Of a DNA stretch of 31,092 bases, positions 12,394 to 31,092 are shown in pieces. This DNA is from a virus. The stretch's first letter is position 1; each line of letters begins with the position of its first letter. The stretch lies in UHGV virus genome UHGV-0204578. The stretch is one strand, 5' to 3'. Under the pieces are notes generated by a model. The model ran no database searches. It saw only the letters and a program-made list of their open reading frames with translations, and was not told the origin of the DNA. Position numbers and translations under genes: made by a program.

Positions 12394-12430
12394 CATACTC
12401 ATAACATCAATAACCGACCAACTCTCACAA

Positions 12431-12581: not shown

Positions 12582-12611
12582 TATGTAGTGGTTTTCATGC
12601 ACCTGCATGAT

Positions 12612-12642: not shown

Positions 12643-12776
12643 TTAGCAAAAACGATCCTCAAACGATCATGCGATCTCATGCGGCATAGACATGCACTAC
12701 AGAGCTAACGCCTCGCAAGGGCTCGTTGTTCAACCTTGCTGACGCCAGAAGCAAGTTCAGACGCCAGCAACGTTTC

Positions 12777-13010: not shown

Positions 13011-13020
13011 AAAAGTCACC

Positions 13021-13209
13021 TCAGCTGATGACATCCATTGAGCGGTTGTATTCGTGGGTTCTGATTTTTGCCATGAGTTCATCAGTCAATTCAGAAACCC
13101 ACTGCAGAGCCAGCCCCTTCTCTTCATCACTACACTCACTAGCCGCTACAAGCTTAAGAAAAAAATCAATGCGCTGGAGCTTCAAAGACTCCAAAAAATA
13201 GTCCTGCAT
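13021..13209 (-). CDS. Small SOS-regulated protein (62 aa), possibly a 186 Tum-type antirepressor analogue
   Basis: ATG at 13209 with strong RBS (TAGGAGGAAAG-ATG), directly downstream of the LexA box and co-oriented with dinI. The 96-aa track ORF would contain the promoter and LexA box, so the 5' extension is rejected. The Tum analogy is positional only. Confidence 0.5.
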   Translation of the reverse strand: MQDYFLESLKLQRIDFFLKLVAASECSDEEKGLALQWVSELTDELMAKIRTHEYNRSMDVIS

Positions 13210-13252
13210 CTTTCCTCCTATGACACCACACGCAACACTGTATGTATAACCA

Positions 13253-13268
13253 CTGTTTATATTTACAG
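13253..13268 (-). promoter_or_regulatory. LexA operator (SOS box) CTGT-N8-ACAG, with a weaker adjacent half-matching copy at 13238..13253
   Basis: ctgtttatatttacag is a perfect CTG-N10-CAG LexA consensus, about 45 nt upstream of the small-ORF start and overlapping -10-like TATA-rich hexamers. Confidence 0.75.
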
Positions 13269-13283
13269 TATATAATAATCTTA

Positions 13284-13314
13284 CTGATGTAAAACGTTTT
13301 TTTACGTTCATCAG
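13284..13314 (-). terminator. Inverted repeat / possible terminator after gene A
   Basis: ctgatgtaaaacgtttttttacgttcatcag: 6-bp outer and AACGT/ACGTT inner pairing between A stop (13363) and the LexA promoter. Not a canonical terminator (no clean T-run). Confidence 0.3.
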
Positions 13315-13362
13315 CCTGATATGCCTGGTATTATTAAGAGCACGAATTGTTAATCCGCGTAA

Positions 13363-15777: not shown

Positions 15778-16631
15778 GCACGTACTCCGTACACGGCAGA
15801 ACTATCCACGCCACGCGAATAATCAAATCCCACCCAGCAGCGCGGCCCGGAAACAGCAATGATTTCTGTTGCTGATTTACCCTCGCCAGCTGCCACACCG
15901 ATGCTGCGTTTTACCTTGATATAGTGGTGAGTAAAATTGCGATACAGCGAACGGATCAGGGATGTGTCACTGTTAGAAACAATGACCGGATGTCCTTCTG
16001 ATGACCGATGTTCAAGAACGGATGCCAGGTGATACTGGTCATCTTCAGTGAAGCCGTCAGCGTGATAGCCGGAAAACGTACCGTCATAAGGCGGATCGCA
16101 ATACACCACATCCCCCGCCTTCAACACCGCCAACGTTTCATCAAAGCTGGCGCAGATAAACGTTGCTCGCTGGGCCTTTTCTGCAAATGCGCGAATTTCT
16201 TTTTCAGGGAAATACGGATTTTTATAATTACCGTAGGGAATGTTGAAATGCCCGCTCTTGTTATAGCGACATAACCCACGGTAACCGTGACGATTGAGAT
16301 ACAGGAAATATACCGCTTTCATGAAATCAGTAATTTCAGTGGAGTAATTAAACTCCTGCCTTATGTTGTAATAAGCCACCTCCCTGTTTGCTTCCTCAAA
16401 TAAAACTCTGGCGCGAGATATAAACGATTCACAATCAGCGGCAACCTTTTTATAGAGGTTGATTAAATCAGGATTAATATCCGCAACCAGATAGCTGGGG
16501 TAATCCGTCTCCATCATCACAGCACAGGAACCCGCGAAAGGTTCAACCAGTCGCGGGCCAGCAGGAAGGTGTTTTTTCAGTTCGGACATAATGGCGGTTT
16601 TATTTCCCGCCCATTTCAGGATGGTGCTCAT
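15774..16631 (-). CDS. dam: DNA adenine methyltransferase (Dam family)
   Basis: Motifs ILKWAGNK (AdoMet binding) and DPPY (catalytic). ATG at 16631 is preceded by CAGGAGGTG; stop overlaps the A start (ATGA). The track ORF to 16703 is an upstream extension. Confidence 0.85.
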
Positions 16632-16930
16632 ACAGCACCTCCTGCAATAACATATCCTAAAGCTTCTAATGGGGTTAATGGGCGAATTGATAGCATCACC
16701 CATTGTTCTGAAACTGACATGACGTCATTAACCGGAAGCACATGAGAGATAACAGCGGCCCATTCCCTACCCGTAAATACGCCATGCTTCCATTCGCAAA
16801 GAGAAAGAACATCACCAACTTTATAGCCACGATCGTCTTTACGAAGTTCAGCCGTCTTTTGACCTGCAACCACAGCGTTGAAATACTTAGGTGCAATTTT
16901 TAATTGATGGATACGCACTGCCCTTGTCAT
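16628..16930 (-). CDS. Small ASCH/PUA-like (DUF3850-type) protein
   Basis: 100-aa product from ATG at 16930 (CGGAGGTGCTGT-ATG); family assignment from memory of P2-like early-region proteins, not verified. ATGA-coupled to dam. Confidence 0.55.
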
Positions 16931-17154
16931 ACAGCACCTCCGTTGTAGTGCTTGCCTTTCAGCTCTGCGATTTCCTGACAGGTAATGCAAAGCTGCACAC
17001 CCGGAATGGCGCGGCGTCGTGCTGGCGGAATTGGTGCTTCACATTCAATGCAAAGTACGCGGGATACGCCCGGCGTTTTGGTACGGGCAGCACAGATATG
17101 GCGCTGGCGTTCTTCTTCAACGCGCTGCTGTACGAGATCCATTGCATCAGCCAT
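16927..17154 (-). CDS. TraR/DksA-family C4 zinc-finger protein
   Basis: 75-aa ORF with C-x2-C-x17-C-x2-C ([26 protein letters not shown]); AGGAGGT RBS. Confidence 0.75.
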
Positions 17155-17387
17155 TAGTGGACCTCCTGCGCTTCGTTCTGGATTGCTTCAGCGGTCACAC
17201 GCAGCAGTTCTGCTGCTTCGACGTGGTTTAGCTGGCGGGATGTAATATGACACGCAAGGCTATCAAGGCGGGCAGCCATTGCCTCAGCCCTTGCCCGACG
17301 TTCTTCCAGACGAGCCTCTGTCAGTAAAATATTAAGTCCTGCGTCATCCGGTCCGGTTTTAGTCGAGAGGGTTTCAATATTACGCAT
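17154..17387 (-). CDS. Hypothetical early protein (77 aa)
   Basis: ATG at 17387 with CAGGAGAA RBS; stop overlaps the TraR start. Confidence 0.55.
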   Translation of the reverse strand: MRNIETLSTKTGPDDAGLNILLTEARLEERRARAEAMAARLDSLACHITSRQLNHVEAAELLRVTAEAIQNEAQEVH

Positions 17388-17454
17388 AATCAATTCTCCT
17401 GAATTTAGATAAAGGAATGCCCGGCGGGTTTACGCCATGAATTTCATTAATTGG

Positions 17455-17796
17455 TTAATTCGGCATGGCTAGCCGTCTGGGAAATAAGCTCACCACTGCA
17501 CGAAGATGATTCATTACTTTAATCAACTCCCGCTTTTCGTCAGTGGTCAGCTCATTAATGCTGATGCTATGACGTTCAGCTGGAATTTTTGCTATAAAGA
17601 ATATAGCAGCCAGTGCCCGTTTATTTCTTTCATAATTAACATCCCGTGGATCACGTATATCTTTAATAAACCGCTCAAGCTCTGGCTCAATATTCAGGCC
17701 AAATACTTTCGCCCTTAATTCCGCAATATGATTAAGTCCATTCAGGCGTTCACCTGGGCTTAATGGAACAGTCGCCGCAGCGCCATTAATTGCCAT
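17455..17796 (-). CDS. Hypothetical early protein (113 aa)
   Basis: Intact ORF co-oriented with the early operon; no recognisable motif. Confidence 0.5.
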   Translation of the reverse strand: MAINGAAATVPLSPGERLNGLNHIAELRAKVFGLNIEPELERFIKDIRDPRDVNYERNKRALAAIFFIAKIPAERHSISINELTTDEKRELIKVMNHLRAVVSLFPRRLAMPN

Positions 17797-17818
17797 AATT
17801 CATATCCCCAAAACGCAA

Positions 17819-18043
17819 CTATCGCTCTTTGTTCTTACGGTAACGCTCAAGAGGAGATATATTTTTTCGTATCATCTCTTTAACCTGCTCTCCCCGTAAA
17901 AACGTCCCATCCTTTAGCGTGAAAAAGTAACTGCCATCGCCCGACAACGACGGATAACAACAGAGCAAATCATCTTCAGGTACTGAATAACTCTCCCCTC
18001 TGTAACGAAACTGATAAACCACTTCACTTTCCGCTGCATACAT
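17819..18043 (-). CDS. Hypothetical early protein (74 aa)
   Basis: ATG at 18043 preceded by GGAGAAAG; protein-like composition. Confidence 0.5.
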   Translation of the reverse strand: MYAAESEVVYQFRYRGESYSVPEDDLLCCYPSLSGDGSYFFTLKDGTFLRGEQVKEMIRKNISPLERYRKNKER

Positions 18044-18210
18044 TTTGACTTTCTCCGTTTCCCCGTGGTCAATTCAGACAGCAATTCATCTTGTGAACGG
18101 CACGGATGCCAGCGTTTACCATCCTCACCCATGATCCAGCCGTGACCGTAGTGCATTGCCGGGCTTTGTTTTACCAGCAGCGATGCAAATGATGGTTCTT
18201 TCGTCAGCAT
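17914..18210 (-). CDS. Possible small early ORF overlapping the 74-aa gene in another frame (or frameshifted remnant)
   Basis: ATG at 18210 with the same GAGGTGCT start context as dam and the DUF3850-like gene. The N-terminal ~55 residues look protein-like; the C-terminal part is the out-of-frame shadow of the 74-aa gene. Confidence 0.3.
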   Translation of the reverse strand: MLTKEPSFASLLVKQSPAMHYGHGWIMGEDGKRWHPCRSQDELLSELTTGKRRKSKCMQRKVKWFISFVTEGRVIQYLKMICSVVIRRCRAMAVTFSR

Positions 18211-18217
18211 AAGCACC

Positions 18218-18727
18218 TCACAGCAAACCGAATGAAGCACCGAGGCCAGTCACGGTATCAACTGCACTCGCCATCGCAGGATTAGCCTGTAAACGGGCCT
18301 GCAATGAAACAGCCGCCAGCGCCATCAGTCGTGTTACAGAGTTAATGCTGCTGATAGCATCACGACGACCTGCACTGGTTTTTACATCGCCAGATACCGC
18401 ACCTGCAGCAACACGCCCGATCTCTGCGGTTGCACTCATGACGTAATGTGGCAGTTTCTCTTTTGCCACCTCATTAATCGGTACGCATGGCAGGCAGTGA
18501 ATCTGAGCCAGAAAACCATCTACCAGCGTTGAATCTTCAGTCAGATCGGTGAGTAACCAGATTTCTGGCGCTGTGAGCTGATGCGGTTGATCTGGGTTGA
18601 GTTTGTTTCGCAGTGTCTGAACATTCATTCCTGCACGTTCTGCCAGCTTCGCCATATTGTGGCGTAGTGCAAAAGCTCTACAGGCTTCATCAAAATGCGG
18701 ATGTTTGGAAATCTTGTAATCAAACAT
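18218..18727 (-). CDS. cII: 186 CII-like lysogeny-establishment activator
   Basis: 169-aa ORF, second gene of the rightward early operon after apl; length and sequence recalled as matching 186 CII (memory only). Confidence 0.65.
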   Translation of the reverse strand: MFDYKISKHPHFDEACRAFALRHNMAKLAERAGMNVQTLRNKLNPDQPHQLTAPEIWLLTDLTEDSTLVDGFLAQIHCLPCVPINEVAKEKLPHYVMSATAEIGRVAAGAVSGDVKTSAGRRDAISSINSVTRLMALAAVSLQARLQANPAMASAVDTVTGLGASFGLL

Positions 18728-18759
18728 GCTGCCCCCTTAGAAAGTTCTCATAATTGAAC

Positions 18760-19008
18760 TTAGCCACCAACGATGACATTAAAATTGAAATTGGATTGGC
18801 CCATGTTTTTCCTGACTTGTTCCTTTTTGTACTCAAGGTAACGTATACATACTCTGTCTTTCGGTTTTTCCTTTTTTTCCAAGAATTTAGCGAGCTTACC
18901 ATTATGAATCATTTGATATACCGAACCGCGAGAGCGGCCTTCCCATTCCGCGAACTCTGCAGGTGTCGCCATCACTTTTGGTACACGAATTGAAATGTCG
19001 TTGCTCAT
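18760..19008 (-). CDS. apl: Apl/Cox-like excisionase and early-promoter repressor
   Basis: 82-aa HTH protein, first gene transcribed divergently from cI, as 186 apl and P2 cox. Confidence 0.7.
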   Translation of the reverse strand: MSNDISIRVPKVMATPAEFAEWEGRSRGSVYQMIHNGKLAKFLEKKEKPKDRVCIRYLEYKKEQVRKNMGQSNFNFNVIVGG

Positions 19009-19127
19009 AGTGCAGTATCTCTCGATTAAGGTTTGGTTTATGTCGTTTTATCTTGTTTTATTAGATTCAATATTTGATACATCGAGATACTACGATCCAA
19101 TATTTGATACGTCAATAGGATTAAGAA
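19009..19127. promoter_or_regulatory. Immunity switch region: lytic promoter pR (minus strand) with candidate CI operators; lysogenic promoter pL not located
   Basis: Minus-strand -35 TTGACG (19115..19110), 17-bp spacer, -10 TAGTAT (19092..19087). Two 13-bp direct repeats caatatttgatac at 19068..19080 and 19098..19110 overlap -35 and +1. Confidence 0.55.
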
Positions 19128-19760
19128 ATGATACAGGTAAAAGCTGGCGAGAATACAGGGGGAAGAGAGGCTATCCATAGACTAATGGCAGCCTATGATT
19201 TCAAGTCCAGACAGCAACTTTGCGATCACTTAGGCGCATCAAAAAGCACTATGGCAAACAGATACTTAAGAGATAGCTTTCCCGCAGAGTGGGTGATTCA
19301 GTGCGCCTTGGAAACAGGAGTTTCTTTACTGTGGCTAACCACCGGACAAGGCGAACCAGGTTCAAACATTGACCCTAAAAAAAATATCAATTCTGTGAAC
19401 TCCAGCAGGGTTAAACCTCTTTCTGAGCTTGTATCTCCTGAAATTGACAAGGCAACTCTCAACGGTGGTTTATTGGTCGATGCTGGAAAAGCAATCATTG
19501 ATAGCAGCATACTCCCCTCAGACTCAAGCAACCTGCTGCTGGTGAGTACTTCTGGTGATTCTTATTTAATAGATCGCAACCAAACACCACCAGTAAATGG
19601 TACGTGGTTAGTGGACATCGACGGGATAAAAAGCATTGTAAAATTGACACGACTCCCGGGAAACAGATTAGTAGTGCATCAGGATGATTCATCGTTTGAG
19701 TGCGAACTGGATGACATTGAGGTAATAGGTCGCGCACTGAAAATCATTAAGAGCCTTTGA
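19128..19760 (+). CDS. cI: CI-type immunity repressor (186 CI-like)
   Basis: 210-aa ORF with N-terminal HTH-like segment, divergent from apl and immediately upstream of int, the 186 cI-int arrangement. Confidence 0.7.
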   Translation: MIQVKAGENTGGREAIHRLMAAYDFKSRQQLCDHLGASKSTMANRYLRDSFPAEWVIQCALETGVSLLWLTTGQGEPGSNIDPKKNINSVNSSRVKPLSELVSPEIDKATLNGGLLVDAGKAIIDSSILPSDSSNLLLVSTSGDSYLIDRNQTPPVNGTWLVDIDGIKSIVKLTRLPGNRLVVHQDDSSFECELDDIEVIGRALKIIKSL

Positions 19761-19761
19761 T

Positions 19762-20787
19762 ATGACCATCAGAAAACAGCCGAACGGAAAGTGGTTATGT
19801 GAATGCTACCCAAACGGGAGAGATGGCAAACGCGTACGCAAACAATTTGCGACGAAAGGCGAAGCCATTGCGTTTGAGAATTTCACCATGGATGAGGTAA
19901 ACAAGAAACCTTGGCTGGGAGAAAAGGAAGATCGGCGACAACTGTCAGAAGTGATTGAGCAATGGTATTCCCTGTACGGTCAGACACTCGCTGACCCTAA
20001 GCGATTAATGGCTAAGTTAAAAATCATTTGTAATGGACTTGGCGATCCCATCGCTTCTGAATTGACAGCAGGTGATTTCACAAAGTACCGGGAAGCCAGA
20101 TTAAAAGGTGAGGTCAAAAACGAAGATGGCGTGCTCATGTCACCGGTTAAGCCCAGAACGGTGAACCTTGAACAGCGTAACCTATCCTCAGTTTTTGGCA
20201 CACTGAAAAAGCTGGGACATTGGTCTGCACCCAACCCCCTCGCCGGTCTGCCAACTTTCAAAATTGCAGAAGGTGAACTGGCGTTCCTTGCTGCTGATGA
20301 AATCAAACGCCTGCTTGACGCATGTGCTGAATCTCAAAGTCCCAGTCTGCTAATGATTGCCAAGATTTGCCTGGCTACCGGGGCAAGATGGAGCGAAGCC
20401 GAAAACCTGCAAGGTAACCAGATATCAAAGTATCGAATTACCTATACCAAAACAAAAGGAAAGAAAAACCGAACTGTTCCTATTTCTCAGGAACTGTATG
20501 AAGAATTACCCAAAAACAGAGGAAAGTTATTCACACCATGCCGAAAGGCTTTTGAGCGTGCGGTAAAACGAGCTGGAATTGAACTACCTGAAGGTCAATG
20601 TACCCACGTTCTGCGCCACACTTTCGCCAGCCACTTTATGATGAACGGCGGAAACATTTTGGTATTGAGGGATATTTTAGGACACGCTGATATTAAAATG
20701 ACCATGATTTATGCCCATTTTGCACCTGATCATCTGGAAGATGCCGTTACCAAAAATCCACTTCATAACCTCAACTGGCATCGCTAA
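19762..20787 (+). CDS. int: Tyrosine integrase (P2/186 Int family)
   Basis: 341-aa ORF with C-terminal catalytic region HVLRHTFASHFMMNGGNILVLRDILGHADIKMTMIYAH (R..H..R..Y signature); reads toward the att core. Confidence 0.9.
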   Translation: MTIRKQPNGKWLCECYPNGRDGKRVRKQFATKGEAIAFENFTMDEVNKKPWLGEKEDRRQLSEVIEQWYSLYGQTLADPKRLMAKLKIICNGLGDPIASELTAGDFTKYREARLKGEVKNEDGVLMSPVKPRTVNLEQRNLSSVFGTLKKLGHWSAPNPLAGLPTFKIAEGELAFLAADEIKRLLDACAESQSPSLLMIAKICLATGARWSEAENLQGNQISKYRITYTKTKGKKNRTVPISQELYEELPKNRGKLFTPCRKAFERAVKRAGIELPEGQCTHVLRHTFASHFMMNGGNILVLRDILGHADIKMTMIYAHFAPDHLEDAVTKNPLHNLNWHR

Positions 20788-20904: not shown

Positions 20905-20949
20905 ATGTAGGAATTTCGGACGCGGGTTCAACTCCCGCCAGCTCCACCA
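20905..20949 (+). other. ssrA: att core: 45-nt copy of the 3' end of the tmRNA gene ssrA (fragment only)
   Basis: ATGTAGGAATTTCGGACGCGGGTTCAACTCCCGCCAGCTCCACCA matches the E. coli ssrA 3' terminus from memory. Sequence upstream is integrase coding/AT-rich arm DNA, so the full gene is not here. Confidence 0.75.
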
Positions 20950-20982
20950 AATGATGATCCGGATACGTCCGGTGAAGTACAG

Positions 20983-21017
20983 AAAGCCCGCATGGCACAA
21001 GCCCTGCGGGCTTTTTT
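20983..21017 (+). terminator. Intrinsic terminator downstream of the ssrA 3' end
   Basis: GC hairpin gcccgca...tgcgggc followed by TTTTTT. Confidence 0.55.
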
Positions 21018-21060
21018 GTGTCTGACGTTGTCCGAGAACATCCGGCTAAATCCGGTGATT

Positions 21061-21114
21061 ATTGGTATACGTTTAGGTATACGGTAGGATGTATACCTAA
21101 AAACGTATACCAAT
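21061..21114. promoter_or_regulatory. Inverted repeat of a 22-bp motif (ATTGGTATACGTTTAGGTATAC) upstream of the satellite integrase; candidate Int arm sites or int operator
   Basis: Arms at 21061..21082 and 21091..21114 are near-perfect reverse complements; a third copy (one mismatch) lies at 30515..30536. Confidence 0.5.
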
Positions 21115-21133
21115 TCATGAAGGAGCGGCCACA

Positions 21134-22327
21134 GTGGCACGGACAACACGCCCCCTTACCAACACCGAAGTTCTGCGCGCTAAGGCGTTAGAGAAGGATC
21201 TAACGCTGCACGATGGCGACGGGCTTTTCCTGATAGTGAAAACTAGTGGCAAAAAGCTCTGGCGCTTTCGCTATCAACGTCCGGTAACAAAGCAGCGGAC
21301 AATGATGGGGCTCGGTGCCTTCCCCGCCCTATCGCTTGCTGATGCCCGAGGATTAAGAGCGGATTACCTTGCCTTATTAGCCAACGGACTCGACCCGCAA
21401 ATTCAAACTGAAGTTGCAGAGGAACAGCAGCAAATAGCACTGGACAGTATTTTTTCAACGGTCGCCGCTAACTGGTTCCAGCTCAAAAGCAAAAGCGTTA
21501 CCCCTGATTACGCAAAAGACATTTGGCGCTCACTGGAGAAAGATGTATTCCCTGCCATCGGTGAGATCCCCGTTCAGCAAATCAAAGCACGGACACTGGT
21601 TGAAGCTCTTGAGCCAATCAAAGCTCGTGGGGCGCTTGAGACTGTACGTCGACTGGTGCAGCGCATTAACGAGATAATGATTTATGCCGTAAACACTGGC
21701 CTGATTGATGCTAATCCAGCATCAGGTGTTGGGATGGCCTTTGAGAAGCCCAAAAAACAAAACATGCCGACGCTTCGGCCAGAAGAGTTACCAAAACTCA
21801 TGCGTTCTTTGGTGATGTCAAATCTCTCTGTTTCGACTCGCTGTTTAATTGAATGGCAACTCCTGACGCTTGTGCGCCCTTCTGAGGCCTCCGGTGCTCG
21901 TTGGGCAGAAATCGATCTCGATGCAAAGCTTTGGACTATTCCAGCCGAACGGATGAAGGCGAAACGTGAGCACATAGTTCCTCTCTCAACTCAGGCATTA
22001 GAGATTCTCGAAGTGATGAAACCAATCAGCGCTCACCGTGAACATGTTTTTCCCAGTAGGAATGATCCAAAACAATCCATGAATAGCCAAACAGCTAATG
22101 CAGCTTTGAAGCGTATAGGATATGGAGGAAAATTAGTTGCACACGGTTTACGATCTATTGCAAGTACTACATTGAATGAAGCGGGCTTTAATTCAGATGT
22201 GATAGAAGCGGCATTAGCTCATACAGATAAAAATGAGGTAAGAAGAGCATATAACCGCTCTATCTATTTAAAGCAAAGAATAGGCATGATGGAATGGTGG
22301 GGTGAAAAAGTTTATAATAAAAACTGA
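21134..22327 (+). CDS. int: P4-family integrase (IntA-like tyrosine recombinase)
   Basis: 397-aa ORF, GTG start with AAGGAG 8 nt upstream; N-terminus MARTTRPLTNTEV...DGDGLFLIVKTSGKKLWRFRY typical of P4/CP4-57 integrases; sits about 185 bp after the ssrA 3' end as intA does in E. coli K-12. Confidence 0.9.
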   Translation: MARTTRPLTNTEVLRAKALEKDLTLHDGDGLFLIVKTSGKKLWRFRYQRPVTKQRTMMGLGAFPALSLADARGLRADYLALLANGLDPQIQTEVAEEQQQIALDSIFSTVAANWFQLKSKSVTPDYAKDIWRSLEKDVFPAIGEIPVQQIKARTLVEALEPIKARGALETVRRLVQRINEIMIYAVNTGLIDANPASGVGMAFEKPKKQNMPTLRPEELPKLMRSLVMSNLSVSTRCLIEWQLLTLVRPSEASGARWAEIDLDAKLWTIPAERMKAKREHIVPLSTQALEILEVMKPISAHREHVFPSRNDPKQSMNSQTANAALKRIGYGGKLVAHGLRSIASTTLNEAGFNSDVIEAALAHTDKNEVRRAYNRSIYLKQRIGMMEWWGEKVYNKN

Positions 22328-22366
22328 AAAAAAAATAAAAGCTCATTCTTATGAGCTTTTATTTTC
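22328..22366. terminator. Bidirectional intrinsic terminator between int and the cargo operon
   Basis: Hairpin aaaagctcat-tctt-atgagctttt flanked by an A-run on one side and a T-run on the other. Confidence 0.65.
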
Positions 22367-22964
22367 CTGCATTACCTTTCGAATTATCAGCATCCTGTTT
22401 ATTTTGAAAAGTCATAAAGGTATTATACCAACTAGAAACACGGAATATAGCAAGAACAGCTGCTAATGCAGAGAATACTGAGTAAATAAATATAAAGTAA
22501 GCAAAAAAACTAAATATTAATAACGCATACTTATAGAAAACACCTAAATAATAATACATAAAAGCATTATTTATGAGAATACTACTATAGGCCTTGGTAA
22601 CCAAGGCCGTAATAATAGTTAGTAATTGCAACAATATAAAATGGACAAAAGTTGCATTGACTGACATATAAGGAGAATATTCTACTTCCCCACTTTCACT
22701 TTTTTCATCACCAGTTATTATTTTTTTAAAGGCCTCATCACCAATAGCTATCCACATAGCAAAACCACCTAATGAAAAGCCCAGAAGGTTCGGCATCAAT
22801 GACAGGATATCATTCCACCACCCCTGATGAGACCAAGATGGATAAAGAATCACTGTCATTAAAAAAGCACACCAAAAATAGCGACTTTTAAACACAGCCC
22901 CAGCGCCACCATAGATTTTCCAGTATCTAGCCAATGCACTGGTTGATTCTTTTTCTTCACTCAT
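22359..22964 (-). CDS. Uncharacterised integral membrane protein (201 aa, about 4 TM helices); downstream gene of cargo cassette
   Basis: Hydrophobic segments YFWCAFLMTVILYPSW, ILSLMPNLLGFSLGGFAMWIAIG, VHFILLQLLTIITALV, YALLIFSFFAYFIFIYSVFSALAAVLAIF; start overlaps the upstream gene stop (TAATG); AT-rich. Confidence 0.7.
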   Translation of the reverse strand: MSEEKESTSALARYWKIYGGAGAVFKSRYFWCAFLMTVILYPSWSHQGWWNDILSLMPNLLGFSLGGFAMWIAIGDEAFKKIITGDEKSESGEVEYSPYMSVNATFVHFILLQLLTIITALVTKAYSSILINNAFMYYYLGVFYKYALLIFSFFAYFIFIYSVFSALAAVLAIFRVSSWYNTFMTFQNKQDADNSKGNAGK

Positions 22965-23893
22965 TACTTTCTCAGAAGCCTCTTAAATTCATCTGCTAAT
23001 GATTTTGCCCTTAATAACAATAGCTCAGAAACCGATGTTACGTCAGAATCATATGGTTCGACCCTTTGAAGTGGTACGTCACTTGAGGCATGAACCTCTA
23101 CTAATCCCGCCTCATTAATCCTGCGTATACTAACTTCACCATTTCTCGAAGCAATAAGAGCATCCTGTTTTAACTCACCATCAGGTTTAATTTCCTGACC
23201 TCGCTCAGATTTATATGTTTTATCCTCTTCAATAACCCCAATACGCTTGAAGCGCTTTTGCATAACATTTTCTGCAGAAGCGAGATCATCCGGATTAGGA
23301 CGTCGAGTGACCATATTTATACACGTAATACCTTTTAAAGAAAGCATACGTTCTACACTATCTGGCTCAGTCAATATTGTAACATTAACCTTTCCAAATT
23401 TCTCTATAATTCTCTCGTGAGAAAATATCCCATTCAGAAAGCTTTCTATTTGTCTTGGTGTAAGATGCCGGCTCTTGTCCTGCATTTCGTAAACTAAAAG
23501 ATGACTTGCGGGTAGAAAAACAAAAGAGAATCTAGCTACATTTGGTTTTAAATTATCAGGTATATTTATTCTTTCCTTTTCCTCATCTGAAGCTATATCT
23601 TTCTTTACGATATCGAACCAGTCGCCATTAACGTCAATATCTGTATACTTTAGAATTTCCCCCTCAAAAGGTTCACTAATTACCTGACCTTTCTTATAAG
23701 GATAAAAATATGATAAAGTTGCGAATGAGTCTCCTCTTAAATTAACATTGCTCGCATTTTTTCTTGCCATCCTGAATAACTCGACATACTTTTCTGGCGA
23801 GTGGGGGTGCATGGATATATTCACAGCCCCGTAAGTTAATTTTTTTGCCCTTGCCATTTTTATCTTTGTTCCCTTATTTCGTGAAAGAATCAT
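22964..23893 (-). CDS. Uncharacterised soluble protein (309 aa; 297 aa if start is ATG at 23857); upstream gene of cargo cassette
   Basis: Intact AT-rich ORF with no TM segments and no catalytic motif I recognise (no Walker A, no GS..DxD nucleotidyltransferase motif, no HxH); translationally coupled to the membrane protein gene. Confidence 0.7.
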   Translation of the reverse strand: MILSRNKGTKIKMARAKKLTYGAVNISMHPHSPEKYVELFRMARKNASNVNLRGDSFATLSYFYPYKKGQVISEPFEGEILKYTDIDVNGDWFDIVKKDIASDEEKERINIPDNLKPNVARFSFVFLPASHLLVYEMQDKSRHLTPRQIESFLNGIFSHERIIEKFGKVNVTILTEPDSVERMLSLKGITCINMVTRRPNPDDLASAENVMQKRFKRIGVIEEDKTYKSERGQEIKPDGELKQDALIASRNGEVSIRRINEAGLVEVHASSDVPLQRVEPYDSDVTSVSELLLLRAKSLADEFKRLLRK

Positions 23894-24078
23894 ATATACA
23901 TGAAAGGCTTAGGGAAAACTATGTCTTAACGCACACCATCTAATAGCCAAAGGAAATAAAAATACAATTCATTATTCAAAATGGGAATATTATTTCCTCC
24001 ACGGATAATGCTCATTGGTTCCACTACCAGATTCGTAAAAATTAAAAAAACAACATCCAAGAACAGCGCGCAATGCTC

Positions 24079-24100
24079 TCCCCGCCACGCCTGCCCGCTT
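24079..24100. other. cos site of the P4-type satellite, identical 22-mer to the helper cos
   Basis: TCCCCGCCACGCCTGCCCGCTT identical to 12560..12581; flanks also similar (ttttaatgcaggtgcatga versus ttttcatgcacctgcatga). Located between cargo and psu, where P4 cos lies. Confidence 0.6.
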
Positions 24101-24264
24101 CTTGGGGCGCTTTTAATGCAGGTGCATGAAGTGGCTCAGGCCGCGCCGCGACTGGCGCTGGTCGGGAGTACAGGAGCGGGAAAACGCATGCAAAACCATG
24201 CACCCTTTGGATGCATGGCTTAATTCGGGAAAAATGGCGGGAATTACGAGGATTTTTTGACAGG

Positions 24265-24831
24265 TTACGGCGCGGCCAGTTCGGCGCGTCGACGGGTGTA
24301 AATCATGCTCTGTGCAGGGGTGAATTTTTCACGATTATCATCCCGCGAAGGCGCGTCAGGCCTGTATCCGATGGCCGTTAAAATATCGCTATCCTGTGCC
24401 GAATAATTAATTTCATTTCCTGCGGCCAGCCAGACGGAAAGAGCTTCTCGCAGGTATGCTACTGAACGGTCAAGCGCACGGTTTTTTATCATCGTGGGCT
24501 GGTTCTTAATTCCCATCAGCTCGGGTGCCAGTGCGGCGGCCAGCTCCGCGCCGTTCTGCTGCATAAAATCGTACAGCCGGTTACGGATGCTGATGCGCTG
24601 CACCTCCTCATGCGAGGAAATGTAGCGACCGGCGGCCTGATTAATCTCCCATTTTTTTACGTCAATAATATCTCGCAGCGTCTGTAATCTGCGGGAACCT
24701 GATGCGTTGTCATCCAGCAATAATTCCTGATATTCCTGTTCTGCGGCGGTCAGTTCGGCTTTACAGTTCAGCCACGCCGTTTTGTTCGTCTGACAGGCAT
24801 CGAACGCCTGCTGTAAGGTCAGGGTGGTCAC
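24265..24831 (-). CDS. psu: Psu (polarity suppression / capsid decoration protein)
   Basis: 188-aa ORF (GTG start) with strong similarity to P4 Psu (..LQQAFD.CQ.NK.AWL..K.EL.AAEQEY..NQAAGRYI.SHE.VQ.ISIR.RL.DFMQQ..). Confidence 0.85.
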   Translation of the reverse strand: MTTLTLQQAFDACQTNKTAWLNCKAELTAAEQEYQELLLDDNASGSRRLQTLRDIIDVKKWEINQAAGRYISSHEEVQRISIRNRLYDFMQQNGAELAAALAPELMGIKNQPTMIKNRALDRSVAYLREALSVWLAAGNEINYSAQDSDILTAIGYRPDAPSRDDNREKFTPAQSMIYTRRRAELAAP

Positions 24832-24847
24832 GGGTTGTCTCTCCTGA

Positions 24848-25093
24848 TTAATGGTGGAACGGTGAGCTGTAGCAGCTTTTTACCCGGCGGGGTGTAACGG
24901 GTACTGTCGGCACCGGTGCGGGTTTCTCATCGACGACCGGGGAACGGATCACCTCAAAGATGGACTCATGCGTTTTGAATGTCGCCGAGCAGTGCACATT
25001 CTGGCACTGGAGGTAACTCTCTTTGACGCTGTCAGACATATAGCGGCTGGTGCGAACGTGGGCCGCTGTGCGACAGAAAGGGCAGCGCATCAT
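24848..25093 (-). CDS. delta: Delta/Ogr-family zinc-finger late-gene activator
   Basis: MMRCPFCRTAAHVRTSRYMSD...YLQCQNVHCSATF mirrors P2 Ogr (CPLCQHAAHARTSRY...HQCQNVNCSATF). Confidence 0.85.
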   Translation of the reverse strand: MMRCPFCRTAAHVRTSRYMSDSVKESYLQCQNVHCSATFKTHESIFEVIRSPVVDEKPAPVPTVPVTPRRVKSCYSSPFHH

Positions 25094-25827
25094 GACAGTA
25101 ACCCTCGTGCTTTCAGATCGGCTTCACGTTCCTGCATTTTTTCCTGCCAGACTTTTCGCTGACCGGGCGTGGCCGCAACGTCATGCTCCATATGTGGCAG
25201 CGTGGAGGCCGCCAGCCCTGTTTTAAAAAGCACTGGTTCATCAGTCAGACGGATATTGCAGTCCTTCACCGCCTGCTCAAGCCATGATTTCACCTTATGC
25301 ATAACGGCATGCTCTGGTTCGACATAGCCCTGATGCCCGATGGTGTTGGCAAGCGGATTTTCTTTAACCAATATGCTGAGTTTCATTGCTCTAACGAGTG
25401 CGCCGCAGGTTTCACGTAGGGCGGCATCGAGTTCATGCTCTGCATACTGGCTGAGTACGCCGTGATGCGCCTGACGGTATGTTCTGGCCGTGCTGTCACA
25501 GGCTCCCCGAAGGCTGTCCAGCTCGAAAGACAGCACCTCAGCCATGTTGTCACATTCCAGTGCCAGCTCCCGCCGTGCCACGCGCGCAATATGGCGTTGT
25601 TTCAGCTCGTCGGTAATGACAGCACCACCGGCACGAAAGGCGGTGCGCCATGCACCGGAATCATTGCCGTTTTCCTGCTCCAGTTCAGTTTTTTGCGTTT
25701 TCACCTGGCTGATGGCCGTCGTGGTTTCGTCCATGCGTCGGGCATTGGTCAGATGTGCTTCTCTGGCCGTCTCAAGACTTTCTATTGCGGGTTTAAGGTA
25801 GTCGGGAATAACAGCGGTCTGAGTCAT
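25090..25827 (-). CDS. sid: Sid (capsid size determination external scaffold)
   Basis: 245 aa from ATG at 25827 (GAGGAGA RBS); position and length as P4 sid, upstream of delta and psu; helical, Gln/Glu-rich. The track ORF start at 25893 is an upstream extension. Confidence 0.75.
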   Translation of the reverse strand: MTQTAVIPDYLKPAIESLETAREAHLTNARRMDETTTAISQVKTQKTELEQENGNDSGAWRTAFRAGGAVITDELKQRHIARVARRELALECDNMAEVLSFELDSLRGACDSTARTYRQAHHGVLSQYAEHELDAALRETCGALVRAMKLSILVKENPLANTIGHQGYVEPEHAVMHKVKSWLEQAVKDCNIRLTDEPVLFKTGLAASTLPHMEHDVAATPGQRKVWQEKMQEREADLKARGLLS

Positions 25828-25899
25828 GTCGGGTCTCCTCTTCGTTTCAATCTGAGGAGATTCTGCCGCGCCGGACACAACAACACGATTCATTGCCGT

Positions 25900-25917
25900 T
25901 GTGGCAAAAATGGCACA
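25900..25917 (-). promoter_or_regulatory. Psid late promoter activator site (TGT-N12-ACA)
   Basis: tgtggcaaaaatggcaca centred about 81 bp upstream of the sid ATG; same dyad type as the helper late promoters. Confidence 0.6.
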
Positions 25918-26004
25918 AACAGACCTTAAAACCCGGCTGGCCAGAGAAAGGTCTCATGAAAACATTACTCACCGTTTGTTTTTTTACTTATAACTATTCA
26001 CTAC

Positions 26005-26114
26005 TGTTCACTGAAAAGAAAAAGATAAGTAATACAGTAAGTTAAAGGGTGAACAGTTGAAGGTCTGACTGTTCACCGTCTGTTCACCACTGTTCACCTT
26101 TCAGTTTGTTCAGC
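26005..26114. repeat. Iteron cluster (TGTTCACC type), candidate alpha-binding ori/crr element
   Basis: Exact TGTTCACC at 26070, 26081 and 26091 (10 to 11 bp spacing), inverted GGTGAACA at 26048, degenerate copies at 26005 and 26107. TGTTCACC is the P4 type I iteron. Confidence 0.65.
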
Positions 26115-26367
26115 CAGTCAGCCACTTAGACTTTTTGGCGATTAAAAAACAGAAGTATATAAACAAAAGTAATCAGCAATGGGCCACCGGTTTGCCAACG
26201 TTTGCCAAAAAACGGCCAACGTTTGCCACTGTATAAAAATCGCTCTGTTGTGTGGTGGAGTACTACAAAATGACTTGTTGCCCTGAGGGAAAATATTCAC
26301 AAAATAGAGAGCTACCCGAAGCCGGACGGACACGACCGGCACTGTATGGACTTTGTGAGGTAGCCCG

Positions 26368-26634
26368 ATGCACACCGTTTTTTCTTCCCCGTCTTCTGCC
26401 CCTGCCGCGCCGCTGATGCCGGTTTCTGATACCGTTCACGAACGCTTTATCCGTCTGCCCGAAGTGATGCATCTGTGCGGCCTGTCCCGCTCGACCATTT
26501 ACGACCTCATCAGCCGGGAAGCCTTCCCGAAACAAATCTCCCTCGGCGGAAAAAATGTGGCGTGGGCGCAGTCTGAAATCACTGCATGGATGGCGGATCG
26601 CATTGCCGAACGTAACCGGGGCTATGACGCATGA
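26368..26634 (+). CDS. alpA: AlpA/Vis-family small DNA-binding regulator
   Basis: 88-aa ORF with the AlpA-type HTH segment [49 protein letters not shown]. Confidence 0.75.
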
Positions 26635-26761
26635 TGATGATCGCTCAGCAAACAGCCCCTTTTTCTGGCTTGCTTCTTTTCGCCATTTCCAGGTATAGTT
26701 TTCCCGCTGTCGCAAAATCGACAGCCGGGCGTGGAAACCCGAGCAACTCGAAGGCGACACC

Positions 26762-26785
26762 AGACGCGCCATGCGTCTTTTTTTG
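26762..26785 (+). terminator. Intrinsic terminator inside an untranslated leader
   Basis: agacgc-gccat-gcgtct hairpin followed by TTTTTTT, in the roughly 400-bp gap between alpA and the next RBS-bearing start. Confidence 0.55.
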
Positions 26786-27032
26786 TGTCGCAACTAACGC
26801 CACAGAGCGCCAGATAATGGCGTGGTGTGCGGATCGTCGTGCAGACGTCACTTTGTGTCTCCTGTCCGCAATCGCATATCATGCTGTCATGTCAATGGTA
26901 GCTCAGGCGGGGCAGCCCTCGGGCTGGCCGGTATTCTTCGAGGCCGGTATTTCCACCCCCGTCTGGGCTATCGCCACTGAGCGTGGAAACTCCGGCGATA
27001 GCAATAATTTGCTACTCGAAGGAGGTTGCCTT

Positions 27033-27227
27033 ATGGCTACGACCCTCACCCCGTCACAGCCTCAGTTTGTCTTTGTGTTTGCCGCCGTCCGTCGTGCAGA
27101 CCGTAAGCCCCGTATCTGTATGCTCCGCACCGTTGCCGGTGACGAGCACGCCGCACGTCTTTCCCTCGTTCGCGATTACGTCCTCTCGTTCGCTGGCCGT
27201 CTGCCGGTTGCGGAGGTGCGCGCATGA
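27033..27227 (+). CDS. Hypothetical small protein (64 aa)
   Basis: ATG at 27033 preceded by AAGGAGG (7-nt spacing). The upstream in-frame 134 codons of track ORF 26631..27227 contain the terminator, look non-protein-like and are rejected. Confidence 0.5.
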
Positions 27228-27451
27228 GACACACCACCATTACCGCCCGTGACCTCGAATGCCTTGAGCACATGCGCAACGTCGGCCAGCTCGTCAATGA
27301 GCTGATGCAGGTGCAGGACTGTACGGCCGTTCGTCGTGACCCTGCTCAGCAGTCACAGCTCACCTCCGTGATTTACCTTATGACCGCCCAGCTCGACGGC
27401 GTGGTTGAGCGCTGCAATCAGCACTGGCTGACCGGGGAGGGCAACGTATGA
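27224..27451 (+). CDS. Hypothetical small protein (75 aa)
   Basis: ATGA-coupled to the previous ORF, GGAGGTG RBS. Confidence 0.55.
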
Positions 27452-27768
27452 AACAGCCATTACCGCCCGTATTACGCGCCGCGCTGTATCGTCGCGCCGT
27501 GGCCTGTGCATGGCTGACGGTGTGCGAATGCCAGCACCGCTACCCGCACCTCACCCTCGACGCGCTGGAAAGCGCCATTGCCGCCGAGCTGGAGGGCTTC
27601 TATCTGCGCCAGCACGGCGAGGAAAAGGGCCGTCAGATTGCCTGTGCATTACTGGAAGATTTAATGGAAGCCGGGCCACTGAAAGCCGCGCCGTCACTGT
27701 CCTTTCTCGGGCTCGCGGTGATGGATGAACTTTGCGCCCGTCACATCACATCGCCTGTACTGCACTGA
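27448..27768 (+). CDS. Hypothetical protein (106 aa)
   Basis: ATGA-coupled to the previous ORF, directly upstream of alpha. Confidence 0.55.
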
Positions 27769-27782
27769 GGGAGAAAATAACA

Positions 27783-30116
27783 ATGAAAATGAATGTAACG
27801 GAAACCGTAAAACAGGCCTGCGGCCACTGGCCGCGCATTCTCCCGGCGCTGGGTGTGAAGGTCATTAAAAACCGCCATCAGGCCTGCCCGGTATGCGGCG
27901 GCTCTGACCGCTTTCGCTTTGACGATAAAGAGGGGCGCGGCACGTGGTTCTGTAACCAGTGCGGCGCGGGTGACGGCCTTAAACTGATTGAGAGGGTATT
28001 CGATGTATCTGCCTCAGAGGCCGCCCAAAAGGTGAATGCTGTCACCGGCAACCTGCCGCTGGTTGCCCCGGAGGTGATTGCGGCCGCAGAGGCTGAAACC
28101 GATGCCGACCGCAAAGCGGCGGCCGAGCTGGCCGTAAAACTCATGGAGAAGACCCGCACGGCTGCCGGCAATGCCTACCTGACCCGCAAGGGCTTCCCCG
28201 ATAGTGAATGTGTGATGCTGACGGCCACACATAAAACCGGCGGTGTGACGTACAGTGCCGGGGATTTGGTTGTTCCGCTGCATGACCATTCCGGCGCGCT
28301 GGTTAATCTTCAGCTTATCAATGCTGAGGGTCTCAAACGCACCCTGAAAGGCGGCGCGGTGAAAGGGGCATGCCATATCATCGAAGGGCAGAAACAGGCA
28401 GGAAAACGCCTGTGGATAGCAGAGGGCTATGCAACAGCACTCACCGTGCATCACCTGACTGGCGAAACCGTCATGGTGGCGCTGTCGTCCGTGAACCTTC
28501 TTTCTCTGGCGAGCCTTACCCGACAAAAGCACCCGGCCTGTCAGATTGTCCTCGCCGCCGACCGCGACCTCAGCGGGAACGGCCAGACCAAAGCCGCAGC
28601 GGCTGCACTGGCTTGTGAGGGCGTTGTTGCCCTGCCGCCGGTATTTGGTGACTGGAATGATGCGTTTATGCAGCAGGGTGAGGACGCCACACGCAAAGCT
28701 GTCTATGGTGCCGTCCAGCCAGCCACACAAAGCCCGTTCGACACCATGAGCGAAGCCGAATTTACCGCCATGAGCGCCAGCGACAAGGCTTTGCGGGTAC
28801 ATGAGCATTACGGCGAAGCGCTGGCGGTGGATGCGAACGGCCAGCTCCTGTCCCGCTATGAAAACGGCATCTGGAAAAATATCCCTGCCGCCACTTTTTC
28901 ACGGAATGTGGCTGATTTATTCCAGCGCTTACGCGCCCCGTTCTCATCCGGGAAAATCGCCTCGGTGGTGGAGACCCTGAAACTGATTATTCCGCAGCAG
29001 GATACACCTGCGCGCCGTCTGATTGGTTTTCGTAACGGGGTGCTGGATACCCAAAGCGGGATATTCAGCCCACACAGCAAATCGCACTGGCTGCGCACCC
29101 TGTGCGATGTGGATTTTACCCCGCCGGTGGACGGGGAAACGCTGGAGACGCACGCGCCGAACTTCTGGCGCTGGCTCGACCGTGCGGCCGGTAAAAATCC
29201 ACAAAAACGCGACGTGATTCTGGCCGCGCTGTTTATGGTGCTGGCGAACCGTTACGACTGGCAGCTCTTTCTCGAAGTCACCGGTCCCGGTGGAAGCGGT
29301 AAAAGTATTCTGGCCGAAATTGCGACCCTGCTCGCCGGGGAAGATAACGCCACGTCAGCCGATATCGACACACTGGAAGACCCGCGCAAGCGTGCCTCCC
29401 TGATTGGCTTCTCGCTTATCCGTCTGCCAGACCAGGAAAAATGGAGCGGTGACGGCGCAGGACTTAAGGCCATCACCGGCGGCGATGCGGTCTCAGTTGA
29501 CCCGAAATACCAGAACCCATACTCAACACATATTCCGGCGGTGATTCTGGCCGTGAACAACAACCCCATGCGCTTCACCGACCGCAGCGGCGGTGTGTCG
29601 CGCCGCCGGGTGATTATCCACTTCCCGGAGCAGATTGCGCCGGAGGAACGCGACCCGCAGCTCAGGGATAAAATTGCGCGCGAGCTGGCCGTGATTGTGC
29701 GCCAGCTTATGCAGAAATTCAGCGACCCGATGACTGCACGCGCACTGCTCCAGTCGCAGCAGAACTCCGACGAGGCACTCAGCATCAAGCGCGATGCTGA
29801 CCCGACGTTTGATTTTTGCGGCTATCTGGAAATGCTCCCGCAGACCAACGGGATGTTTATGGGGAATGCCAGCATCATCCCGCGTAATTATCGTAAATAT
29901 CTCTATCATGCGTATCTGGCCTATATGGAGGCCAACGGATACAGAAACGTGCTCAGCCTGAAAATGTTCGGGCTGGGGCTGCCCATGATGCTGAAAGAGT
30001 ACGGCCTGAATTATGAGAAGCGGCACACCAAGCAGGGGATACAGACTAACCTGTCGCTGAAAGAGGAAAGCTACGGCGACTGGCTGCCTAAGTGCGACGA
30101 ACCCACAGCGATATAA
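27783..30116 (+). CDS. alpha: Alpha primase-helicase (P4 alpha family)
   Basis: Starts MKMNVTETVKQ... (GAGGGAG RBS), giving 777 aa, the P4 alpha length as I remember it. N-terminal zinc-binding primase motif CPVCGGSDRFRFDDKEGRGTWFCNQCGAGDG; Walker A GPGGSGKS in the helicase domain. Confidence 0.9.
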   Translation: MKMNVTETVKQACGHWPRILPALGVKVIKNRHQACPVCGGSDRFRFDDKEGRGTWFCNQCGAGDGLKLIERVFDVSASEAAQKVNAVTGNLPLVAPEVIAAAEAETDADRKAAAELAVKLMEKTRTAAGNAYLTRKGFPDSECVMLTATHKTGGVTYSAGDLVVPLHDHSGALVNLQLINAEGLKRTLKGGAVKGACHIIEGQKQAGKRLWIAEGYATALTVHHLTGETVMVALSSVNLLSLASLTRQKHPACQIVLAADRDLSGNGQTKAAAAALACEGVVALPPVFGDWNDAFMQQGEDATRKAVYGAVQPATQSPFDTMSEAEFTAMSASDKALRVHEHYGEALAVDANGQLLSRYENGIWKNIPAATFSRNVADLFQRLRAPFSSGKIASVVETLKLIIPQQDTPARRLIGFRNGVLDTQSGIFSPHSKSHWLRTLCDVDFTPPVDGETLETHAPNFWRWLDRAAGKNPQKRDVILAALFMVLANRYDWQLFLEVTGPGGSGKSILAEIATLLAGEDNATSADIDTLEDPRKRASLIGFSLIRLPDQEKWSGDGAGLKAITGGDAVSVDPKYQNPYSTHIPAVILAVNNNPMRFTDRSGGVSRRRVIIHFPEQIAPEERDPQLRDKIARELAVIVRQLMQKFSDPMTARALLQSQQNSDEALSIKRDADPTFDFCGYLEMLPQTNGMFMGNASIIPRNYRKYLYHAYLAYMEANGYRNVLSLKMFGLGLPMMLKEYGLNYEKRHTKQGIQTNLSLKEESYGDWLPKCDEPTAI

Positions 30117-30125
30117 CCTACCTCA

Positions 30126-30149
30126 GACCGGCAACAGCCGGTCTTTTCC
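30126..30149 (+). terminator. Intrinsic terminator after alpha
   Basis: agaccggc-aaca-gccggtct followed by TTTTCC. Confidence 0.6.
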
Positions 30150-30168
30150 TTTCTGGCCATTGCCACAG

Positions 30169-30455
30169 GGTGAACAATCCACTGCTCACCCTTCACCGTA
30201 TATTCACCCTGTATCACCATGAAATTATTGATAAAAAACCAGAGGTGAACAGTGTGAACAGTAAAACCTGAAAAAACTTTTTATCACCCCTCACATCGCC
30301 TGAGCGGACGGTTCCAGAACGAGCACAAATCACAAAGGTGAAGAGTCGACTGTTCACTCTTCACCAACCATTCACCACTTATCATTATGATATTAAAAAG
30401 AAAAAAAGAGAGGTGAACAGTGTGAACAGTTAAATGCAAAAAAACTTTTTTTTAA
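30169..30455. repeat. Two tandem ~168-bp repeats, each carrying TGTTCACC-type iterons (crr-like cis replication region)
   Basis: Units starting near 30169 and 30337 are clearly homologous; GAGGTGAACAGTGTGAACAGT occurs in both (30242 and 30410), with several TTCACC/GGTGAA half-iterons. Confidence 0.65.
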
Positions 30456-30514
30456 TGCGTTCCATTCAAAAAAACAGGTTTGCAAAACCAAAGTAAACAC
30501 TACAGCAAATCGCC

Positions 30515-30536
30515 ATTGGTATACGCTTAGGTATAC
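30515..30536. repeat. Third copy of the 22-bp GGTATAC-containing arm motif near the satellite right end
   Basis: ATTGGTATACGCTTAGGTATAC; one mismatch to 21061..21082. Confidence 0.5.
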
Positions 30537-30735
30537 AACTGAAAGTTGAATTGATAAATATTCAATAAAATCAAAATATTGAGAAAAATTTTCAGACTCC
30601 GCCAGCCCAATCATGATTGGACGGTGTAAGGACAACACCAACAAAAACAGGAAGTTAGAAGTCTCAGCAAAACACCGACCAGACGGTGAGGAGACATAAA
30701 AGGATACGCAAAGGAGCCGCGGCTCCTGGTAACAT

Positions 30736-30760
30736 GAAAGCCCACAGATGTGGGCTTTTT
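30736..30760. terminator. Intrinsic terminator between satellite end and flanking gene
   Basis: aaagcccaca-gat-gtgggcttttt; 10 bp downstream of the stop of the minus-strand flanking gene. Confidence 0.6.
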
Positions 30761-30769
30761 CGTTGATGG

Positions 30770-31092
30770 TCAGAACGACCAGTTCACACCAGCTACCGCG
30801 TTCCACGGGGATTCCACACCGGCACTATGGCTATACCCCACCCCAAGATGCCCGCTTAACGTACTGCTGAATGAGGCTTTAATACCTGCCTGGTATATTC
30901 CACGTCTGCCCGACAAATAATTGACGAAATTACCGTCACTATTCACTTTCACCCGGTTATCATCGACAAATTCTTTGCGCACAGCCGCCTTCAGCCACGG
31001 CTCAACTTCCATGCCGTTCCCCAGACGCATGTTGTAACTCAGCGTTGCGCCCAGTTCACGATATATACTGCGGGTATCGACTGATTTCGATT
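30770..31092 (-). CDS. 3' end of a probable outer-membrane beta-barrel / autotransporter gene (5' part beyond window end)
   Basis: Frame stays open upstream of the track M to the window edge (my translation ...SVDTRSIYRELGATLSYNMRLGNG...). C-terminus ...VGYSHSAGVESPWNAVAGVNWSF ends in an aromatic-x-F beta-barrel signature. Confidence 0.45.
   Translation of the reverse strand, partial: SKSVDTRSIYRELGATLSYNMRLGNGMEVEPWLKAAVRKEFVDDNRVKVNSDGNFVNYLSGRRGIYQAGIKASFSSTLSGHLGVGYSHSAGVESPWNAVAGVNWSF

Follow-up and report, generated by a model that had tools for sequence, protein, structure and literature searches.

A P4-like satellite of 9.66 kb is integrated at the 3' end of E. coli ssrA, and positions 30590-30620 (TTTCAGACTCCGCCAGCCCAATCATGATTGG) of the 31,092-nucleotide stretch of DNA analysed here (the window) are quite likely to be its true attR, a composite site from which it would still be able to excise. 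The window is a piece of the E. coli chromosome in which a P2-like prophage and then the P4-like satellite occupy the same ssrA site in tandem. The proposed attR lies at the end of the island distal to the integrase gene, and beyond it comes the sequence that directly adjoins ssrA in genomes without an island. Sites of this kind, the attRs of P4/IntA-family islands at ssrA, are known and ordinary; the present one is allelic to psaA of K-12.

The right boundary was located by means of empty sites. Of 5,426 complete E. coli genomes, 2,514 matched in one place a query composed of the last 250 nt of ssrA and the sequence to the right of the 30590-30620 feature, and the top matches aligned as a single colinear piece. 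In strains 1919D3 and 720632 ssrA runs ...GCCAGCTCCACCA straight into (A)ATCATGATTGGACGGTGTAAGG..., followed by ypjA. At the empty site ssrA ...CCACCA is joined directly to (A)ATCATGATTGGACGG, and the window carries ATCATGATTGGACGG from 30609. Since the sequence from 30609 onwards (AATCATGATTGGACGG... through ypjA) directly follows the CCA of ssrA in ~2,500 island-free genomes, the satellite ends there and ypjA is chromosomal. Judged by this comparison, the end of the satellite is at 30606-30608 and the boundary is certain, where an earlier, sequence-only reading of the same DNA had called it uncertain. The comparison with satellite-free strains which that reading had proposed thus defines the empty site in roughly half a collection of finished genomes (~2,500 of 5,426). 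NCTC10973 has the same satellite and the same right junction, adjoining intact ssrA and without the P2-like prophage.

A conserved chromosomal spacer (30609..30769, + strand), located directly 3' of ssrA in the empty-site genomes, leads to the 3' end of ypjA (30770..31092, - strand; approximate coordinates, transferred from NCTC10973), which encodes an adhesin-like autotransporter (YpjA/EhaD) and runs off the window. The sequence-only reading had also considered that the true attR might lie beyond the window, in which case this beta-barrel gene would be cargo of a larger island. The single exact ssrA core in the window is indeed at 20929-20949, with no further copy at up to 3 mismatches, and the lack of a second exact copy inside the window would fit an attR further to the right. 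However, ypjA and its 160-bp spacer stand directly 3' of ssrA in the ~2,500 island-free genomes, and the end of ypjA was found in 5,341 of the 5,426 complete genomes, and we give an attR beyond the window virtually no chance of being correct. The satellite has an exact right boundary, ypjA does not belong to its cargo, and there is no sign of a lost att site.

Within the attR the core-like 20-mer reported earlier, AGACTCCGCCAGCCCAATCA, is real and occupies 30594-30613. Its likeness to the ssrA core CAACTCCCGCCAGCTCCACCA, given before as about 15 of 21 positions, corresponds to a gapped alignment with 15 matches in 21 columns and one gap, and its distance of about 60 bp from the right arm repeat was measured as 57 nt. 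That repeat (ATTGGTATACGCTTAGGTATAC, 30515..30536, + strand) is a predicted arm-type integrase-binding site of the P arm and matches the copy at 21061-21082 with 95% identity. Next to it on the right is the satellite's AT-rich P arm (30537..30598, + strand), which was delimited by alignments, is the same in NCTC10973 and terminates in TTTCAGACT. On these alignments TTTCAGACT is an arm owned by the element, which departs from the GGGTTCAACTC of ssrA since it has never belonged to that gene; the P arms of other elements differ, terminating in TTCAGACT or TTCAAACT. The crossover block CCGCCAGC (30599..30606, + strand) is identical to 20935-20942 in attL, and the next two nucleotides, CC (30607..30608, + strand), align as the remnant of a displaced ssrA tail, here termed the short allele. 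Their counterpart is TCCACC in intact ssrA and CCACC in K-12 psaA, the window tail being without T357 and without ACC relative to ssrA. Together with the chromosomal flank, the CC forms a perfect 14-bp palindrome, CCAATCATGATTGG (30607-30620), which also occurs in CCACCAATCATG-type empty sites, where it overlaps the CCA end of ssrA.

Dozens of Enterobacterales species and genomes, and 57 IMG/VR contigs, have the exact 17-mer TCAGACTCCGCCAGCCC (30593-30609) preceded by the AT-rich arm of an element. K-12 has this 17-mer at the right end of CP4-57, in overlap with psaA. This recurrence indicates that the likeness of TCAGACTCCGCCAGCCC to ssrA is a feature of the family, due neither to chance nor to local decay. 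The earlier suggestion of a decayed right junction holds in that the site is degenerate compared with ssrA, lacking T357 and ACC, but this is mostly the normal state of such an attR, and CCGCCAGC is intact in attL as well as in attR. Exact identity of these two sites extends over 8 bp, short of a classical exact-repeat att pair. Inspection by eye for inverted-repeat core sites round the crossover block revealed no convincing symmetry.

The left end of the satellite is marked by an exact 45-nt copy of the ssrA 3' end (ATGTAGGAATTTCGG...CAGCTCCACCA; 20905..20949, + strand), which matches the ssrA 3' ends of K-12 and NCTC10973. It is both the displaced fragment that ends the P2-like prophage and the bacterial half of the satellite attL. 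It contains the attL crossover block CCGCCAGC (20935..20942, + strand), whose position follows from the literature on U357 deletion and from partner swapping as discussed below, and the functional-type tail TCCACCA (20943-20949), in which T20943 is the counterpart of T357/U357. The P' arm of the satellite (20950..21133, + strand) comprises a terminator-like hairpin with a T-run (20999-21013 plus tail), predicted to be able to terminate ssrA. The arm also has the arm-type repeat ATTGGTATACGTTTAGGTATAC at 21061-21082, with a further copy in inverted orientation at 21091-21114. In NCTC10973 this P' arm adjoins the intact gene. No tmRNA gene was found in the window by ARAGORN or by Rfam at gathering thresholds, because ssrA is present there as the 45-nt fragment only.

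The P2-like prophage extends from position 1 to about 20900, with its integrase gene at 19762-20787 (Pfam). In strain D3 a P2-like prophage is colinear with window positions 681-19355 at 84-97% identity, and the order there is smpB, intact ssrA, P2-like prophage, ssrA fragment and P4-like satellite; the helper-satellite layout of the window thus recurs in that strain. By analogy with D3, we infer that the functional ssrA of the present chromosome is located to the left of the window, where the P2-like prophage has its other end. An identical 21-mer, CCCCGCCACGCCTGCCCGCTT, is located in the cos-like regions of both the prophage (12561-12581) and the satellite (24080-24100); these are its 2 exact copies in the window, where none would be expected by chance. 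The common cos-like 21-mer suggests that the satellite could be packaged by the adjoining P2-like prophage. A P2 cos sequence had matched the satellite only, with 3 mismatches, and was replaced by this helper/satellite 21-mer.

The satellite (20950-30608, 9.66 kb) is complete. Its integrase (397 residues, 21134..22327, + strand) is of the P4/IntA type, contains the Pfam domains Arm-DNA-bind_3, Phage_int_M and Phage_integrase, and is 62% identical to K-12 IntA over 393 residues without gaps. Two cargo genes between int and psu (22359-23893, - strand) encode a DUF4747 protein of 309 residues and a protein of 201 residues that has no Pfam match. The interval between int and psu in P4-like satellites is a frequent home of anti-phage systems, and PADLOC gave no match for either of these genes. 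Psu, Delta (an Ogr/Delta zinc finger) and a gene in the Sid position follow (24265-25893), Psu and Delta being assigned by Pfam and the Sid-position gene having no Pfam match. An AlpA/Vis-type excision regulator of 88 residues (26368..26634, + strand) was identified by the Pfam family Phage_AlpA (E = 3e-20). The C4/isrK-type RNA region (26693-26978) matches the Rfam families C4 (antisense RNA), c4-a1b1 (the a1/b1 target) and isrK; it lies upstream of the replication genes and overlaps an Icd-like open reading frame, and these RNAs are probably the CI-type immunity RNA system of the satellite. The alpha primase-helicase gene (27732-30116, Pfam) is followed by a crr-like region of two direct repeats of 114 nt (30169-30450) that is rich in GGTGAACAGT-type iterons and whose repeats share 82% identity with the P4 crr region. 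Iterons resembling the GGTGAACAGT type were also seen near 26038-26107, and the iteron region near 26040-26107 is probably the ori. With Int, Psu, Delta, alpha primase-helicase, a CI/C4-type RNA, crr and a cos-like site, the element is a P4-like satellite by gene content.

The place of strand exchange can be narrowed by published excisions of related islands. In published work, ssrA of K-12 loses T357/U357, the partner in the G.U wobble pair, when CP4-57 excises, and excision of CP4So in Shewanella likewise deletes U357 (PMC10107115, PMC5148205). The loss of U357 in these excisions places the crossover 5' of that T, and the laboratory strain DTU-1 has the T-less empty site predicted from it, with a 362-nt ssrA ending ...CCGCCAGC-CCACCAATCATG. 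Swapping of arms and tails among the junctions described below, taken with the U357-deleting excision, puts the crossover within (C)CGCCAGC. At either end of the satellite (20935-20942 and 30599-30606) the block is intact, and the minimal block common across elements is the 7-bp CGCCAGC, which is all that the island of ETEC H10407 shares with ssrA. The length of CGCCAGC is typical of a tyrosine-recombinase overlap. Partners and tails are exchanged at (C)CGCCAGC; the exact crossover of the present integrase would lie there by extension from experiments with IntA, to which it is 62% identical, and with the Shewanella integrase, rather than from work with the satellite's own enzyme.

The tails to the right of the block occur in three main alleles at the same E. 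coli site, of which the window has the shortest, and this may bear on how efficiently the satellite excises and on the known switch in which excision inactivates tmRNA. TCCACC is the tail of island-free genomes and is found in the attR of MCJCHV-1 and KSC9, this attR form occurring in 54 genomes (exactly in 6, the remainder, including MCJCHV-1, having one arm mismatch). CCACC is the tail of K-12 psaA and was found in 633 genomes, many of which are laboratory K-12, and CC is the tail of the window, of NCTC10973 and of 90 E. coli genomes. Rare tails of 3 and 4 nt were also seen (CCC at locus L037 and CCCC at locus L033). Tail allele and left partner are independent of each other. The arm terminating ...atatttattcaaact has the TCCACC tail in MCJCHV-1 and the CC tail in 2009C-3133 and ST2747, and the arm of CP4-57 type is joined to CCACC in K-12 and to CC at locus L039. 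The left partners of the CC tail are of at least five kinds. Two are satellite arms and a third is the arm of CP4-57 type; also among them are the ssrA fragment that ends a lambdoid prophage in A36 and, in H10407, the arm of an unrelated island, where CGCCAGC is the sole identity with ssrA. In Kosakonia (locus L119) the left partner of a short tail is likewise an ssrA-type fragment, and across species the short tail was found in at least seven different right-hand contexts. Among ~125 enteric junctions the T-less long tail is the commonest form (97), followed by the short tail (20) and tails with T (6). Compared by sequence, the short allele would most simply derive from CCACC if a unit of the CCA-CCA repeat were lost, and recurrent CCA-CCA slippage is plausible. 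Recurrent slippage, as opposed to inheritance of one allele, would weaken the argument drawn from A36 and H10407 for repeated recombination at short-tail sites.

Strand exchange to the right of the tail, in CCACCAA, was rejected as the main model on the strength of the U357-deletion literature, DTU-1 and the swapping of arms and tails. Under that model TCAGACTCCGCCAGCCC would be a wholly element-borne attP and the ACC would have been lost after integration; in a variant, T357 lies inside the overlap, and each event may generate a heteroduplex from which either tail can segregate. It has the merit of accounting for a P arm that is nearly always accompanied by a T-less tail (97 long and 20 short versus 6 with T), a linkage that persists in tandem-array junctions before the P' arm of another element (FACU 2024 and many IMG/VR contigs). 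Set against this are the T-less ssrA left by excision (PMC10107115, PMC5148205, and DTU-1), the occurrence, at a single chromosomal site, of one P arm with a T-containing, a T-less or a short tail, and H10407, which shares only CGCCAGC with ssrA, and we regard an exchange in CCACCAA, or its variant, as improbable. A crossover in (C)CGCCAGC is preferred. T-less tails are linked to many right-hand contexts, among them P' arms from several elements and flanking sequences from many species, and this is not easily explained by a crossover confined to CGCCAGC; it points to some exchanges to the right of the tail, to a T inside the overlap, or to T-less attP variants that integrate at secondary sites.

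P2-like and lambdoid prophages inserted further upstream in ssrA were observed in KL53 (L193), A36 (L195) and Kosakonia (L119), and the ssrA fragments that follow them carry T-less or short tails. These fragments look like footprints of departed P4-like islands, functional ssrA having been restored by the incoming phage.

The closest known counterpart of the attR is psaA (b4645), at the attR of K-12 CP4-57. The right end of CP4-57 is TTCAGACTCCGCCAGCCCACCAATCATG, also read TTCAGACTCCGCCAGCCCACCAATCATGATTGG, of which 14 bases are annotated as the pseudogene psaA. Both sites lie between the island and ypjA and have the same succession of TTCAGACT, CCGCCAGC and CC... before the same flank, ATCATGATTGGACGG. 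The 14-nt psaA sequence itself, CCGCCAGCCCACCA, is absent: the window has CCGCCAGCCCA and then ATCATG, 3 nt (ACC/CCA) being missing, and the tail is CC where psaA has CCACC. As aligned, the window feature is the positional orthologue of psaA in a different allele, 3 nt shorter. CP4-57 shares with the satellite an integrase of the same family (62% identity) and an AlpA-type regulator. However, CP4-57 is a 22-kb mosaic whereas the island in the window is a compact and complete P4-like satellite of 9.66 kb, and the attL of CP4-57 abuts the functional gene whereas that of the satellite abuts the 45-nt ssrA fragment behind the P2-like prophage.

Phage P4 has a like set of genes and sites (int, psu, delta, the Sid-position gene, alpha primase, a CI/C4-type RNA, crr and a cos-like site) and an attP in which arm-type repeats flank a short core, as in the satellite. 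P4, in contrast, targets a tRNA-Leu gene (leuX) rather than ssrA, and its core has roughly 20 bp of exact identity with the target, whereas the satellite and its target are identical over 7-8 bp with a similar but non-identical flank. The P4-like island CP4So of Shewanella oneidensis, also in ssrA, differs in genus and island content, but its attR, going by the published description (PMC5148205), likewise lacks the T of the G.U pair; there, excision by IntA and AlpA exchanges strands 5' of the T and leaves a defective tmRNA (PMC5148205). In keeping with the Islander/TIGER concept (PMC4383910, PMC7192596), the satellite has its target gene at one end and a 3'-end fragment at the other. Unlike the fragments of that concept its own is an inexact repeat, so that repeat-based mapping fails, while the neighbouring P2-like prophage has the classical exact 45-nt fragment. 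Because the two ends share just 7-8 bp, att finding based on repeats fails for this common class of ssrA islands, for which comparison with empty sites succeeds.

We propose that the attP of the satellite would consist, in order, of the P arm (arm-type repeat, AT-rich spacer and TTTCAGACT), CCGCCAGC, TCCACCA, the hairpin and the P' arm-type repeats. On integration, the P4/IntA-type tyrosine integrase would exchange strands in (C)CGCCAGC, common to attL and attR, such that the host ssrA tail is swapped for the element's copy and the old tail is left at attR. Everything from 30607 rightwards would then be chromosomal, first the old tail remnant CC and then the native ssrA-ypjA spacer, and the other arm of the satellite would supply the functional tail and terminator at attL. 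Excision would need Int and AlpA/Vis and would cross 20935-20942 with 30599-30606, releasing a 9,664-bp circle with a good tail and leaving the chromosome as ...AACTCCCGCCAGC-CCAATCATG.... The predicted circle junction is TTTCAGACT-CCGCCAGC-TCCACCAAATGATGATCC and the predicted empty junction GGGTTCAACTC-CCGCCAGC-CCAATCATGATTGG; in island-free relatives, ssrA would be expected to be followed by AATCATGATTGG. In the K-12-type arrangement, as published, excision inactivates tmRNA through loss of the G.U pair. As the P2-like prophage stands between the satellite and the functional ssrA, excision of the satellite would leave that gene undamaged.

The recombination module is intact, with a full-length Int, AlpA/Vis and arm-type repeats on both arms, and relatives with degenerate tails, K-12 CP4-57 and Shewanella CP4So, do excise (PMC10107115, PMC5148205). 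By analogy with them the short CC tail should still support excision. With the short tail, the flank from the chromosome stands 3 nt nearer to the crossover block than in K-12, which could disturb the right-hand core site. Hence a second reading accepts the site as the true attR but holds that the change from CCACC to CC shifted or destroyed the right-hand core site of the integrase, locking the satellite in place. As an allele, the short tail is in the minority (90 genomes versus 633 with the K-12 form, and 20 of ~125 enteric junctions), it fits CCA-CCA slippage in an unselected copy, and the published excisions concern T-less long tails only. A locked satellite is nevertheless at odds with the intact crossover block, Int, AlpA and arm sites, and with the occurrence of the short tail beside at least five left partners, including the ssrA-type fragments of A36 and Kosakonia, since many left partners are the expected product of repeated site-specific exchange. 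We consider a locked satellite unlikely, though with an appreciable chance of being right, and favour an excision-competent attR.

A more speculative proposal, which we think doubtful, is that the defective tails to the right of CGCCAGC are maintained, rather than decaying neutrally, since they tie tmRNA function to island occupancy, the present satellite being uncoupled by the 45-bp ssrA copy of its helper. If this were so, loss of an island would break ssrA and gain of an island would repair it, and the satellite, freed from the ssrA lock, could excise freely upon induction of the helper.

A reconstructed P-core-P' query for the free attP retrieved from the phage collection only P4 crr and partial matches. 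Among the E. coli genomes it gave one contiguous match, in FACU 2024, which was rejected as evidence of a circle as it is the junction of a tandem array. The array in FACU 2024 (L008, 3351-15300) consists of a complete P4-like satellite and, past the junction TTCAGACTCCGCCAGCCCACCAAATCATGATCCGG, another integrase gene of the P4 type, which IS1 has truncated; ypjA is also disrupted by IS elements in this strain.
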